Source of the DNA: Dictyostelium discoideum
Taxonomy: Eukaryota
Assembly (NCBI GenBank): GCA_000004695.1
Contig: CM000152.2
Location: forward strand, 3,904,001-3,968,000
Reading direction: 5' to 3'
DNA length: 64,000 bases
Shown: positions 24,566 through 36,261 of the stretch, piece by piece
Position numbering within the stretch: the stretch's first letter is position 1
Layout of the letters: every line of letters starts with the position of its first letter
Notes under the pieces: generated by a model
Seen by the model: the letters and a program-made list of their open reading frames with translations, nothing else
What the model was told of the DNA's origin: nothing
The model's database searches: none
Position numbers and translations under genes: made by a program

Positions 24566-24902
24566 ATGACTTTGTTTGGTAATCATTAATTTTATTATAA
24601 TTATAAAATTAATATAAAAAATAATTAATTCTTTTTTTTTTTTATTTTTTATTTTTTTTTTAGCTTCAATCTCTTTAATTTCTAATCCATTAAAAGGATC
24701 AAACTCAAGAATCTCATCATCAAATGGAAGTGGTATTTTAATGGGATCAAATTCAATAACATGTGGAGGTTGTGGTGGAACAACTACTACAATAAAATCA
24801 TCTGGTTCATTTACAATTGATTCTAGTATTAATGTTTATGTGGATTCTAAAAATGTTTATTCACGTACTTATCATGATTCATTTAATGGCTGTTCTAGTT
24901 AA
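24566..24902 (+). CDS. divergent HssA/2C/7E-like small Ser/Gly-rich protein (array copy A): join(24566..24578,24664..24902)
   Basis: 13-nt exon 1 ATGACTTTGTTTG (MTLF+G), followed by a GTAATC donor; acceptor ttttAG at 24662-63. Product is [43 protein letters not shown]... Confidence 0.5.
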
Positions 24903-25798
24903 TCGTGTGATTTAATCATAAAAAGTAAATCTGATAAATCACCAAATATTAATATTTATATATATCAGTAAATTTGTAATATCAATCAATTTCCTTATTT
25001 TTTTAAAATAATTAAAAAATAAAAAAATAATAAATTCAATAATTTCTTTTTTTTTTTAAAAACAATATTATTTTTCATTCTTTTTTTAATTTAATGATTT
25101 ATTCTTAAATTAAAGATTAAAAAATATAAATAAAATTAGATTTGAATAATATTAAATATGATCATAATTGTGGATATACATACAAAAATGTATTTTTTAT
25201 TTTTTATTTTTTATTTTTAAAAAGACAAAATATGTTTTTTTTTAAATTAAATTTAATAATGTAAACCTTAGTTTGTGTTTTTTTACAACAATTTATTTGA
25301 ATTAAACAGTCACTAGAAAAAAGTAGTTTATATTTGGTTAAAAAACAATTTTAAAAGGGGTTTATATTATAATGAATAAAGGTTTAAATTTTTTTTTTTT
25401 TTCTGGTTTTTTTTTTTTTTTAAAAATCAATAACCACATGTTCAAGATGGATTAAATAATTTAAAACAAAAATGGGTTTGTGGTTTGTGAAAAAAAAAAA
25501 AACAAAAATTTGTTTGGATAAACTTTTAATCACGATTTTTAATATTTATTATATATAATCAGTAATTTCATTTTTTTTTTTACCTGTCAAAAATGTATTG
25601 AGATCTTATAGAAAATGAGTGTTTTTAGATAATTAAATCTCTGTACTATTTGGTCTAAAATAATTATTGTTTTTATTTGAAAAAAAAAAAAAAGAATGAT
25701 TTATTTTTAAAATTTTTTTTTAGTTTAAAAAAAAAAGTATAAAATAAAATTTAATTTTATACATTTAAAAATATATTTTAAAATTTAACTTAATAAAA

Positions 25799-26159
25799 AT
25801 GACTCTTTTTTGTAAGAATTTATAAACTAAAAAAAATATTAAAATTAAAACTAACCATATAGTATTATTAATTAATAGCATCAATTTCATCAATTTCAAG
25901 CTCAATTTCAAGCTCAAAATCAAGTATTGCATCATTTGGTAATGGAACAAGTATGGGTTCAAATTCAATTGCATGTGGTGGTGGTTGTGGAAGTGGAAAT
26001 GGATTTGGTGGTATTTTTATTGGTGCAAATATAGATTTAACAGGTGGCGCCAGTACAAGTAGTGGGGGCAGAGGTGGAAGACCAGGTCGTGGACATGGTG
26101 GGCCACATGGTCATGGTCGTGGTGGTTCTGGTTCTGGAAGCTCATGTGGTTGTAATTAG
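25799..26159 (+). CDS. HssA/2C/7E-like small Gly/Ser/Cys-rich protein with Gly/Arg/His-rich tail (array copy B): join(25799..25811,25879..26159)
   Basis: Exon 1 ATGACTCTTTTTT plus GTAAGA donor; acceptor aatAG at 25877-78. Product is MTLFSSISSISS...[30 protein letters not shown]...[30 protein letters not shown]. Confidence 0.6.
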
Positions 26160-26441
26160 GTTTTAAAAAAAACTATATTTCATTCATCCTATTACTATTA
26201 TTGTAATAATACTATATCCAATAAATAAAATTATATATTTTTTTAAATCATTTAAATCAAAAACACTCTTATTTATTTAAAATTTATTATTTAAATATAA
26301 GGATATTTTGACAAGGGAATTTTTTTTTTTTATATTAAAATTAATTTTAGTTTTAAATTTTCTTGGGAAATTAAATTACTTATATTAAATATTTTTAAAA
26401 AAACTATAAATGTAAAATGTAAAATGGTAATAGTTTTTTAT

Positions 26442-26482
<41 letters not shown>

Positions 26483-26955
26483 GTATTGTTAAAAATAATA
26501 TCATGTTTTTTTAATTAATAACCACCAAATCTATTAATTTCAATTTTTTATTAATATTTGTGGATTGGGGTATTGGTGTGTTTGAGTGTGTGGTTAAAGA
26601 TAAACCAATTAGTTTTTATATTTTTATATATATAACTATTATGGGTATCATTAACTGGAAATTTCGTATTTTTAATATTTTGTAAACTGCTAAAAAAGTT
26701 TATTCATCTAATATGAACTCAAACTTAAAAATAAATATTATTTGAATTTGGTAGTTAATTTTTACTTTTTTACAATACTGGTTAAATTACAAGTTAATAT
26801 AAATGAAAAAGAGTGATTTATTTTTTATATTACTCAAAAATAAAAAGTATAAATTAAAATTTTTTTTTTTTTTTTCATTAATCAATTATTATATTTTTAA
26901 TAAAAAAAAATTAAAATAAATTAAAATAAATTAATATAAATTATATTAAAATAAA

Positions 26956-27315
26956 ATGACACTCTTTTGTAAGTATTTTTTTTTTATTATTTTTTAATTT
27001 AATAAATTAAAATAATTACTAATAATTTTTATAATTATAGCATCAATCTCATCAATTTCAAACCCAATGACAAGTTCAAAATCCAGTATTGCATCATTTG
27101 GTAGTGGAACAAGTATGAGTTCAAATTCAATTGCATGTGGTGGTGGTTGTGGAGGTGGAAGTGGTGGTATTCTTGGTTTAGGTTTAGGATTAGGATTAAA
27201 TTTATTTGGAGGTTCTGGATCAAGAGGTGCTTGTGGTGGTAATGGTAGATCTGGAAATCCTGCTCAAGGAGGAAATGGAGGTTCTTGTTGTGGAGGTCCA
27301 TGTTGTGGTATTTAA
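26956..27315 (+). CDS. HssA/2C/7E-like protein, subtype 1 (array copy C): join(26956..26968,27041..27315)
   Basis: Exon 1 ATGACACTCTTTT plus GTAAGT donor; acceptor tatAG at 27039-40. Product is [62 protein letters not shown]...CCGGPCCGI. Confidence 0.7.
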
Positions 27316-27429
27316 AATATCTTAAAAAATTTTAAAAAAAATATATATGTTCAAAAGTACTATAGATGTAATAGTACTTTATTAAAATAAAAATGGTTAT
27401 TTACCAGTTTATTCAAAACAAAAAAAAAT

Positions 27430-33647: not shown

Positions 33648-34030
33648 ATGACACTTTTTTGTAAGGATTTAATATTATTTAATAATTAATAGTTTTTAAG
33701 AAAAGAAAAAAAAAAATTAAACTAATAAATTAATTTTTATTAAAAGCTTCAATCTCATCAATTTCAAATCCAATGACAAGTTCAAAATCCAGTATTTCAT
33801 CATTTGGTAGTGGAACAAGTATAGGTTCAAATTCAATTGCATGTGGTGGTTGTGGAGGTGGAAGTGGTGGTATTCTTGGTTCAGGTTTAGGTATAGGTTT
33901 AGGTTTGGGTTTAGATTTAACTGGAGGCTCTAGAACAAGAGGGTCATGTCGTGGTAATGGCGGATCAAGCAATCCTGTTAATGGTCATGGAGGCATGGGA
34001 GGCGGAAATGGTTCATGTTGTGGAATTTAA
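33648..34030 (+). CDS. HssA/2C/7E-like protein, subtype 2 (copy I): join(33648..33660,33747..34030)
   Basis: Micro-exon + GTAAGG donor; acceptor aaAG at 33745-46. Product ends [13 protein letters not shown]. Confidence 0.7.
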
Positions 34031-34743
34031 ATGTTATAAAATATATATTCAAAACTATTAATAATATAATAATACTTTATTTAAAATAAAAATGGTGAAT
34101 TACCAATAGTGTTTATATAAAAATATAAACTTTAATTTATTTGTATTTTCTATTTATCTATAAATAAACTCAATAAATAAAATTGAACTTTAAAAATGAT
34201 TTATTAAAATAAAATTTTCAATGAAAATTTTAAAAAAAGTGATATAATAATTTATTGATTATATCAGTTTAAGTGTTCATTATTGTTTATTATATTTAGA
34301 AGTGATATTTTTAAGATTATTTTCATTCCATCTCTAATTAAAATTAATCTATTTAAAAAAAAAAAGATTTGTAAGTTGGTAAAAGTTATTTTTTGTAAAG
34401 TTGGTGGTATTGTCAAAAATGATATTATTTTTTTTCAACACAATAAATTTTATTTTTTATTTAATTAATTTGTGGGTTGGGGTATAAAGTTGTTATAATT
34501 TATTAATTGTACACTAGAATTAATATTTTAATTTAATTTATTTTTAATTAAATTTAATTTTTCTATTAATGTATAAACTGTTAAAAAAAGTATTATCATC
34601 TAATAAAAACACAAAACAAATAATATTAATTATTAAATTTTAATGTAAAACTTTTTGAAATTACTTTTTTGGTTAAATTACAAATTATTATTTATTGAAA
34701 AAAGGTGATTTATTTTTTAAGGTTTTCTAAAAAAAAATAAGAT

Positions 34744-34774
<31 letters not shown>

Positions 34775-34818
34775 TATTCACTCATCAATAAAATATTAAA
34801 CTATAAATCAAAAATAAA

Positions 34819-35189
34819 ATGACACTTTTTTGTAAGGACTTAATATTATTTTAGATTATAAAGTTTATAATTATAAAAAAAAAATGAAAACTAATTAATT
34901 TAAATTAATAATTATAGCATCAATCTCATCAATTTCAAATCCAATGACAAATTCAAAATCCAGAATATCATCATTTGGTAGTGGAACAAGTATGGGTTCA
35001 AATTCAATTGCATGTGGTGGTGGTTGTGGAGGTGGAAGTGGTGGTATTCTTGGTTTAGGTTTAGGATTAGGATTAAATTTATTTGGAGGTTCTAGAGGTG
35101 CTTGTGGTGGTAATAGTGGATCTAGTAATCCTGGTAATGGCCCATGTTCTGGTGGTAAATGTTGTGGAGGTTCATGTTGTGGAATTTAA
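34819..35189 (+). CDS. HssA/2C/7E-like protein, subtype 1 (copy J): join(34819..34831,34918..35189)
   Basis: Micro-exon + GTAAGG donor; acceptor tatAG at 34916-17. Product ends [12 protein letters not shown]. Confidence 0.7.
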
Positions 35190-35910
35190 AATATTAAAAA
35201 ATTATTAAATATATATACATTCGAAACTACACTAAAAGTAATAAGACTTTATTTAAAAATTGGCGAATTTCAAATTATATTAAAAAAAATCAAAATAAAT
35301 TAAATCTTTATTACCATATTATTATGTTAACTCTTTTGCAATGATTGATTATATAATATTTATTAAAATTAAAAAACCAACTATTGAATATATCAGTTTG
35401 ATATTTAATTATTGTTCTGAACTTAATGATTTATAACATCTTAAAAATATTTTCATTCCTTCAATATTAATTATTTAAAATTAGATTGAAATTGTGACCT
35501 GATTATTATTTATCTAATTTAAAGGTTGGTGGTATTGTTATAAATGATTTATTTTTTAACCACTAAAAATTTCTTTTTTAAAATAATTGTAGATTGGGTG
35601 TGGGGTTTTATATTTAATGATAATCGTTATCGTTTTTATTATTTTAAAAAATAAAATTTGATTTTATAATTAAAAAAAAAAAAAATTTCCAATAAATGTG
35701 TTAACTTTTAAAAAAAGTATATTCATCTAATAAATAACAAGGTAGAATATTAATTATTATAATTTTTAATTCAACTTTTTGATATTATACTTTTATTTTA
35801 CAAACATTTTTGCAATTCCCTAAAAAAAAACCTATAAAAAATAAAAAATAAATTTTAAATTCTATTCATCACTCATCAGTAAATTATTAAATTATAAATC
35901 AAAAAATAAA

Positions 35911-36261
35911 ATGACACTTTTCTGTAAGGATTATTTAATAATTTATAGTTTTAAAAAAAAAAACAAAAAAAAACTAATAAATTAATTATTATCAATAGCA
36001 TCAATCTCATCAATTTCAAATCCAATGACAAGTTCAAAATCCAGTATTGCATCATTTGGTAGTGGAACAAGTATGGGTTCAAATTCAATTGCATGTGGTG
36101 GTGGTTGTGGTGGAAGTGATGGTATTCTTGGTTTAGGCTTAGGTTTAAGTTTAGGTTTAGGTTTAGGTTTAAATTTAACTGGAGGTTCTAGATCTAGAGG
36201 TGGTTGTGGTGGTAGTAATGGAAGTATGGGTGGAGGAAATGGTTCATGTTGTGGTATTTAA
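35911..36261 (+). CDS. HssA/2C/7E-like protein, subtype 2 (copy K): join(35911..35923,35999..36261)
   Basis: Micro-exon ATGACACTTTTCT + GTAAGG donor; acceptor aatAG at 35997-98. Product ends [12 protein letters not shown]. Confidence 0.7.

Follow-up and report, generated by a model that had tools for sequence, protein, structure and literature searches.

Eleven head-to-tail units and their gene models

The window analyzed here is a stretch of 64,000 nucleotides of chromosome 3 in the Dictyostelium discoideum AX4 genome (GCA_000004695.1, contig CM000152.2, positions 3,904,001 to 3,968,000 of the forward strand), and its subject is a head-to-tail array of 11 units at 24566-36261 on the + strand that belong to the HssA/2C/7E (sigN) family of small proteins. 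With a probability of roughly 0.9, we read the array as the tandem cluster hssl43-hssl52 of that family plus one pseudogene, built of autonomous units under birth-and-death and homogenization. A search with the exon-1/donor motif ATGACWYTNTTNKGTAA recovered exactly 11 sites in the window, 11/11 of them on the + strand, as the initial annotation had described; 0.42 exon-1 motif sites are expected by chance, and 0 of 100 shuffles reached 11. Distances from one ATG to the next range from 975 to 1292 bp.

For the gene models, the 13-nt exon 1 was spliced to whichever downstream acceptor came first in restoring the family reading frame. In all 11 copies, exon 1 has 13 nt and ends in phase 1, the donor is GTAA, and an intron of 67-102 nt closes on an AG acceptor. 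The exon-1 consensus originally proposed had only 12 positions as written and did not fit copy A; its corrected form is ATGAC[AT][CT]TNTT[TC][TG]. Exon 2 opens on SISSISNP in copies C-K. The array comprises 10 intact genes, with products of 83, 97, 95, 92, and 97 aa (A-E) and 97, 94, 98, 94, and 91 aa (G-K), and one pseudogene, F. The predicted Gly/Ser/Cys-rich proteins of ~80-100 aa are therefore found in ten units (83-98 aa) and not in F (49 aa), and the count of 11 genes has to be lowered to 10. In F, the CGGGCGG region differs in length from that of the other copies by a net number of nucleotides not divisible by three, and the frame closes after 49 codons; its tail, MGGNGSFCGI, lies in another frame, with Phe in place of one Cys.

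The units are as follows, each starting at its ATG; P-type and M-type designate two C-terminal subtypes.

24566..24902, + strand: copy A, hssl43 / sigN129 (DDB0203946); exon 1 24566-24578, intron 85 nt, exon 2 24664-24902; 83 aa
25799..26159, + strand: copy B, sigN124 (DDB0203948, presumably hssl44); exon 1 25799-25811, intron 67 nt, exon 2 25879-26159; 97 aa
26956..27315, + strand: copy C, sigN121 (DDB0203949, presumably hssl45); intron 72 nt, exon 2 from 27041; 95 aa, P-type, CCGGPCCGI
28248..28628, + strand: copy D, hssl46 / sigN120 (DDB0203950); intron 102 nt, exon 2 from 28363; 92 aa, P-type; exact match Q54UL3
29475..29849, + strand: copy E, sigN126 (DDB0203951, presumably hssl47); intron 81 nt, exon 2 from 29569; 97 aa, P-type, CCGSPCCGI
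30450..30822, + strand: copy F, sigN154 (DDB0203952), M-type pseudogene; intron 77 nt, exon 2 from 30540; stop 30674-30676; out-of-frame tail to 30822
31487..31880, + strand: copy G, sigN113 (DDB0203953, presumably hssl48); intron 100 nt, exon 2 from 31600; 97 aa, M-type
32625..32988, + strand: copy H, hssl49 / sigN118 (DDB0203954); intron 79 nt, exon 2 32717-32988 (97-100% identity with exon 2 of J); 94 aa, P-type; exact match Q54UK9
33648..34030, + strand: copy I, hssl50 / sigN112 (DDB0203955); intron 86 nt, exon 2 from 33747; 98 aa, M-type; exact match Q54UK8
34819..35189, + strand: copy J, sigN117 (DDB0203956, presumably hssl51); intron 86 nt, exon 2 from 34918; 94 aa, P-type, CCGGSCCGI
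35911..36261, + strand: copy K, hssl52 / sigN116 (DDB0203957); intron 75 nt, exon 2 from 35999; 91 aa, M-type; exact match Q54UK6

The stop codon of copy K, ending at 36261, closes the array. Searches with diverse family members (blastn and tblastn) found no further copy on either strand of the 64-kb window, and no open reading frame (ORF) of at least 110 aa lies between 23.7 and 40.3 kb. A tRNA scan, Rfam, and Tandem Repeats Finder (period limit 500) were empty or uninformative. Base composition is strongly AT-rich throughout the window, with 12-28% G+C per 2 kb.

Family membership, promoters, and expression

The HssA/2C/7E (sigN) assignment made in the initial annotation was borne out by a profile search, and neither of the findings named there as a refutation, missing family hits or cDNA with an unspliced micro-exon, was encountered. 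UniProt calls the same group the hssA/B family. Six of the six products tested (A, B, C, G, H, and K) match Pfam PF05710 with 50.5-74.1 bits against a gathering cutoff of 21.4. These matches span nearly the whole 90-position model, also in copies A (50.5 bits) and B (71.5 bits), and precomputed PF05710 hits are on record for D, H, I, and K. An exact-sequence lookup identified A, D, H, I, and K as the D. discoideum AX4 HssA/B-like proteins 43, 46, 49, 50, and 52, copy A being Q54UL6. Copies B, C, E, G, and J had no exact-sequence entry in the protein collection searched. Wrong gene models for these five were considered and rejected, since both protein length and the sizes of exon and intron agree exactly with the 2008 table. 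Indeed, 11/11 protein lengths agree with the catalogue of Vicente et al. 2008 (BMC Microbiol 8:1; PMC2257962, Additional file 1), including the 49-aa sigN154 for F, and so do 22/22 exon-2 and intron sizes, with a constant offset of -1. The catalogue entries matched are the chromosome-3 predictions DDB0203946 and the consecutive run DDB0203948-57, which in order from A to K are sigN129, 124, 121, 120, 126, 154, 113, 118, 112, 117, and 116. Because of the exact UniProt matches and the catalogue sizes, we regard the array as already known: its genes, their micro-exon structure, the family, and the clustering have been in print since 2008, with annotation in UniProt and dictyBase.

According to Vicente et al. 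2008, the family counts 96 genes, 89 of which have a 13-nt ORF in exon 1; cDNA support for the splicing exists for sigN1. The array shares with this family the 13-nt exon-1 ORF, a single short intron, Gly/Ser/Cys-rich products of <120 aa, the N-terminus MT(L/I)(F/L)S.I(S/T)SIS...SMGSNS(I/V)ACGG, gene clustering, GBF-type G-boxes, and post-aggregative expression. Identity to Protein hssB is 59% over the N-terminal 37 residues, and identity to SigN1 is 26-44% (29-34% for the intact copies B-K). The chromosome-2 sigN Group 2 genes form inverted pairs, whereas the array is strictly head-to-tail, but nothing categorical separates it from the family, of which the eleven copies are themselves listed members. 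In the literature, PF05710 is distributed over D. discoideum, D. giganteum, and D. firmibasis. Our homology searches returned 6 and 9 matches from the ~96-gene family, with the chaperone SRCP1 (see below) not among them, and this word-indexed approach, insensitive to low complexity, carries no inference about taxonomic spread.

The 450 bp upstream of the start codons, when aligned, exhibit conserved promoter blocks in C-K, in the series GGTGGTATTGT, a G-rich box, AAAAAGTATATTCATCTAAT, TTTTGACATTATAC, a TATAAATA box, and a leader, TCACTCATCAGTAAA / TCACTCATCAGTAAATTATTAAATTATAAATCAAAAAATAAA, that runs into the ATG. These promoters also have a TATA box and one predicted cluster of GBF-type G-boxes each, 296-381 bp upstream of the ATG, according to the consensus (T/G)G(T/G)G(T/G)G(T/G) from Vicente et al. 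2008:

26575..35611, + strand: G-box clusters of copies C-K, predicted by consensus; starts 26575/26587, 27897, 29115, 30095, 31161, 32297, 33352, 34471, 35595

No G-box was found in the upstream regions of copies A and B. Ten-mer G-boxes are ~30-fold over-represented in the window. A further GBF-type cluster (TGGGTGGGTG, TGGGTGTGTG, and (TG)5) lies on the minus strand at 37700-38058, within a 3.4-kb very AT-rich gap between Erg28 and an 880-aa ORF (40292-42934) that has no Pfam hit.

Published expression data are available for six genes, DDB_G0280999, 1001, 1003, 1005, 1013, and 1017, each termed 'hssA/2C/7E family protein' in supplement 5 of Kin et al. 2018 (BMC Genomics 19:764; PMC6198379). 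There, transcripts are at ~0 from 0 to 4 h, appear at 8 h, and peak at 12-16 h. Prestalk levels equal or exceed prespore levels for 5/6 genes, with DDB_G0281001 reaching up to 30,873 in prestalk versus 567 in prespore cells, and mature cup, spore, and stalk cells contain little of these transcripts. The same paper describes nine late cup-specific hssA-like genes, which are not array genes; the six array genes stand in its 'Stalk' sheet and peak at 12-16 h. G0281001 and G0281013 also respond to Mef2A loss in RNA sequencing (PMC3640940). The onset at 8 h and the peak at 12-16 h fit a GBF-dependent post-aggregative induction, which probably operates via the single predicted G-box. The eleven autonomous, similarly regulated units would then be switched on after aggregation, probably through GBF on that box, and would produce, in quantity, disordered ~9-kDa proteins that can nearly stand in for one another.

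Upstream, the array is flanked by genes for a protein kinase (19962-22616, +) and an alcohol dehydrogenase of the Zn-dependent kind (22681-23709, -); downstream, Erg28 follows K closely, and a phospholipase D gene is located at ~49-51.5 kb. These neighbors are consistent with a numbering from DDB_G0280995 to DDB_G0281031 (pldA). The numbers of mps1 and pldA come in part from the PMC6198379 supplement. The upstream neighbor DDB0203945 is Q54UL7, the accession directly preceding that of copy A. An A-rich, homopolymer-like tract of ~115 nt (85% A, 24092-24226) is found ~350 bp upstream of copy A.

DDB_G numbers were assigned to individual copies by consecutive numbering and flanking genes, a route that counts against taking this mapping as settled. 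A full-text literature search for the DDB_G identifiers of the array returned no match. The Mef2A paper (PMC3640940) labels its 'hssA' quantitative PCR primers DDB_G0280999, which by the inferred mapping is copy A (hssl43). Neither primer occurs in the window, even with 3 mismatches; either the primer identifier is wrong, or the DDB_G-to-copy mapping needs checking.

Subtypes, gene conversion, and turnover of the units

As first described, copies C-K fall into two C-terminal subtypes. The P-type (C, D, E, H, and J) ends in CCGG(P/S)CCGI or CCGSPCCGI, and the M-type comprises G, I, and K, together with F if read in frame. The edge copies A and B fit neither subtype, in agreement with their original description as divergent: A lacks both the (GL)n segment and the CCGI tail, and B has a Gly/Arg/His-rich C-terminus with CGCN as the last residues. 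Read from C to K, the order P P P M M P M P M bears out the claimed interleaving only from G or H onward, with strict alternation in H-K. Spacers were also correctly noted to co-vary with subtype. They form two classes, defined by the type of gene that follows, and the co-varying part is the upstream, promoter-bearing spacer. Those preceding P-type genes (D>E, G>H, and I>J) show mutual coverage of 96-100% and identity of 75-77%; those preceding M-type genes (E>F, F>G, H>I, and J>K) show coverage of 70-100% and identity of 69-82%.

Within the coding region, the first 37 codons of copies C-K do not follow this division, with a synonymous divergence (dS) of 0.127 between subtypes versus 0.12-0.15 within them. 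After codon 37, the value is 0.256 between subtypes versus 0.139 within the P-type. At the sequence level, subtype identity is thus confined to the C-terminal part. Two causes suggest themselves for the subtype-blind N-terminal half: conversion between subtypes that recurs in the 5' half of exon 2, or nucleotide-level constraint.

The strong conservation of this 5' part across subtypes is also what could be expected if the genes acted mainly as RNA and the small ORFs were incidental. A frameshifted hssA still suppressed the STATa phenotype, as summarized in PMC6198379, which suggests an RNA-level effect for at least one family member. On the other side, an open frame is kept in 31/32 copies over the three assemblies compared below, and all indels among intact copies are multiples of 3. 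The ratio of nonsynonymous to synonymous divergence (dN/dS) is <1 in every pair, mostly 0.3-0.7 with extremes of 0.16 and 0.95, and the pooled ratio of nonsynonymous to synonymous differences (pN/pS) is ~0.25-0.6. Moreover, the family members hssl25, hssl27/7E, and hssl30 have been detected by mass spectrometry in late development. The kept frames and dN/dS values below 1 argue for selection on the proteins, not just on the RNAs, and we consider a mainly RNA-level role clearly unlikely.

The H-I and J-K pairs had been taken for a recent two-gene segmental duplication of ~2.2 kb. The two units are collinear over ~2.3 kb, and H and J differ at exactly 5 residues, matching the ~5 given in the initial annotation, and at only 7 nucleotides (5 nonsynonymous and 2 synonymous changes). 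Outside the H/J coding region, however, the pairs are far less alike. Identity rises to 95-100% in exon 2 of H and J alone (32720-32989), whereas spacers and introns between the units are ~50-90% identical per 60-nt window, the spacers being ~65-85% identical overall and the introns poorly conserved. Likewise, dS is 0.03 for H versus J and 0.23 for I versus K. For all four genes, H to K, separate positional orthologues can be told apart in another D. discoideum assembly (L001, described below) by flanks that are 82-90% identical upstream and 82-90% identical downstream, which places the two-gene duplication before the strain split. A recent origin of the pair is thus very unlikely. The near-identity of H and J is best explained by gene conversion limited to exon 2, with a tract of ~270 bp between the intron and the stop codon. 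This is indicated by the identity restricted to exon 2 and by a comparison with p9, the positional orthologue of J: exon 2 of AX4 J is 92% identical to p9 but 97% identical to AX4 H.

Beyond AX4, we compared the locus in D. discoideum GCA_054859385.1 (L001) and D. cf. discoideum GCA_054859205.1 (L002), with the following composition:

AX4 (window): A, B, 3 P, F (pseudogene), G, H, I, J, K; 11 copies
L001: A, B, 5 P, M P M P M; 12 copies
L002: A, B, 5 P, M P M; 10 copies

The micro-exon gene structure is kept in 21/21 copies of L001 and L002, one of which starts with ATGTC (MSLF) instead of ATGAC. A C/D-like pair present in both is missing from AX4, and the extra M-type unit F of AX4 has no clear positional orthologue in either; F is, on this comparison, an AX4-lineage pseudogene. 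Copy numbers of 11, 12, and 10 in the three assemblies are direct evidence of the unequal-exchange dynamics that had been anticipated for such an array. As seen in these comparisons, the array evolves by birth-and-death and homogenization or concerted evolution, with duplication, loss, and conversion as the processes that maintain it.

Assemblies easily collapse or expand tandem arrays, so copy number or order might be an artefact of a repetitive region, particularly as copy numbers differ among the three assemblies. Such an artefact is extremely unlikely here. The units are well diverged outside exon 2 (spacers of 65-85% identity and distinct intron lengths), which makes mis-joining improbable; the gene sizes match the independent 2008 catalogue exactly; and all three assemblies are collinear along the right flank, from Erg28 on.

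A synteny break coincides with the array's left edge. L002 matches only ~460 bp upstream of A (24096-24550 versus L002 4840-5300), and farther left it carries Serinc and 2-hydroxyacid-dehydrogenase genes where AX4 has the kinase and the Zn-dependent alcohol dehydrogenase. In two recent D. discoideum assemblies, a 175-aa protein fusing an A-like and a B-like gene has been annotated (L001 1-703, P0002/P0003). This fusion is evidently a gene-model error, in which the B micro-exon would have been missed and the spacer read as an intron.

Elsewhere in the window, two genes look like ordinary annotated genes: one at 54898-55659 (+) for an amoebozoan ependymin-domain protein and a two-exon gene at 59633-61636 (+) with a Rab3GAP2 N-terminal domain. 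A 375-aa minus-strand ORF without a Pfam hit (55819-56946) reaches into the bin with the window's highest GC skew (56001-58000, +0.40), and a G-box is located on the minus strand at 57134-57143.

Protein features and candidate functions

In the products of copies B-K, Gly makes up 29-32%, Ser 18-25%, and Cys 4-9%, and the net charge lies between +2 and +4; the Gly share of copy A is 12%. From the N-terminus on, the proteins carry 37 conserved, Ser-rich residues, a CGG(G)CGG cluster, in C-K the hydrophobic stretch (GL)n, and finally a Cys-rich tail that closes with CCGI. Cys residues number 5 in the M-type and 7-8 in the P-type. An AlphaFold2 model of H has a mean predicted local distance difference test score (pLDDT) of 42.7 and neither helices nor strands (DSSP), and a profile search of PDB sequences found no relative better than E = 0.1. 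The proteins look intrinsically disordered, with no stable fold predicted, although the alignment behind the model is shallow (9 sequences) and this weighs against the reading. A heptad-repeat coiled coil was considered and rejected, given the lack of helix in the model and the Gly content of B-K. The Pfam name 'Coiled' is, on such a model and with ~30% Gly, a misnomer, and the database labels 'coiled-coil' (Pfam/NCBI) and 'cysteine knot' (formerly given to SigN1 in dictyBase) appear unsupported for these proteins. Plant glycine-rich proteins, metallothionein-like proteins, and cysteine-knot peptides resemble the products in composition but do not match them in sequence or structure, and 5-8 Cys and their spacing do not seem to fit a six-Cys knot. 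All intact C-K copies end in CCGI, which places a Cys at -4 as in a CaaX box, but the middle residues, C and G, are not aliphatic. CCGN, CCGV, and CYGI variants occur in the other assemblies, and the motif is missing in A, B, hssB, and hssl64.

Tentatively, we favor the view that these proteins act inside the cell as abundant, redundant, disordered factors, in which the (GL)n/Cys-rich C-terminal part would let them associate with other aggregation-prone proteins. This intracellular role is suggested by the lack of a signal peptide, the hydrophobic (GL)n, and the precedent of SRCP1 (serine-rich chaperone protein 1, DDB_G0293362). SRCP1 is placed in the same class of small proteins (PMC8554618), and its gene, G0293362, is listed among hssA-related genes (PMC3640940). 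SRCP1 (Santarriaga et al. 2018, Mol Cell 71:216) is described as a protein of ~9 kDa that lacks a recognizable chaperone domain and acts, via a C-terminal hydrophobic 'pseudo-amyloid' domain, on an aggregation-prone polyQ protein inside cells. Like the array products, SRCP1 is small, Ser-rich, and Dictyostelium-specific, and their hydrophobic (GL)n occupies a comparable position. On the other hand, its gene lies on chromosome 6, outside the array, and the array genes are development-specific.

Several points weigh against such a role. The similarity of (GL)n to the SRCP1 active domain is putative, a comparison by description; SRCP1 was found in a screen of growing cells, in which the array genes are silent; and no developmental phenotype followed from the loss of 13 sigN genes or, in other work, from that of six further family genes (PMC2257962, PMC8554618). 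The six genes that Wu et al. 2021 knocked out all lie outside the array. The frameshifted hssA and the antibody data discussed next pull in the same direction.

Alternatively, the products may be secreted small Cys-rich proteins that become disulfide-linked into the slime sheath or stalk-tube matrix, or that serve as an adhesive, as Vicente et al. also proposed. Antibodies against SigN group 2 disaggregated mounds and stained small vesicles, hinting at an extracellular or adhesive role, and the slime sheath holds urea-insoluble proteins of <15 kDa rich in Ser, Cys, and Gly (PMC2257962). The prestalk-enriched expression peaking at 12-16 h and the composition of 5-8 Cys with few Lys/Arg per protein are also compatible with this destination. 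Nevertheless, no membrane or matrix staining was observed, the specificity of the antibodies was not validated by the authors (PMC2257962), and the characterized relative SRCP1 is, as noted above, described as acting inside cells; the published evidence for secretion is itself weak. The proteins themselves show no hydrophobic N-terminal core of signal-peptide grade by Kyte-Doolittle hydropathy (a dedicated predictor such as SignalP was not used), with a maximal 9-residue mean over residues 1-25 of 1.3 in C-K, except for 1.59 in G. The 19-residue hydropathy of the (GL)n segment is 1.0-1.7, reaching transmembrane grade only marginally, in copy K. The initial annotation's picture of secreted or cell-surface products thus finds no match in the N-termini and essentially none in the rest of the proteins, and we regard secretion, which may also follow an unconventional route, as possible but doubtful.

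The intracellular role can be extended further, to a form that we consider rather unlikely: copies C-K might constitute a developmentally deployed, SRCP1-like 'pseudo-amyloid' anti-aggregation battery, with (GL)n capping or intercalating into nascent beta-aggregates of the Q/N-rich proteome in the slug. The two subtypes, possibly lipidated at CCGI, would differ in partner or localization, and amplification and conversion of the units would be dosage adaptations.

To what was already known of this cluster, our analysis adds copy-number variation, pseudogene F, the exon-2 conversion between H and J, the subtype-blind N-terminal half, and the synteny break at the left edge. Within this ~96-gene, lineage-specific, and very highly expressed family, the array offers a compact target for functional work, as its ten intact genes would all be lost with one deletion of 11.7 kb, suited to a test of redundancy or of an SRCP1-type anti-aggregation function.

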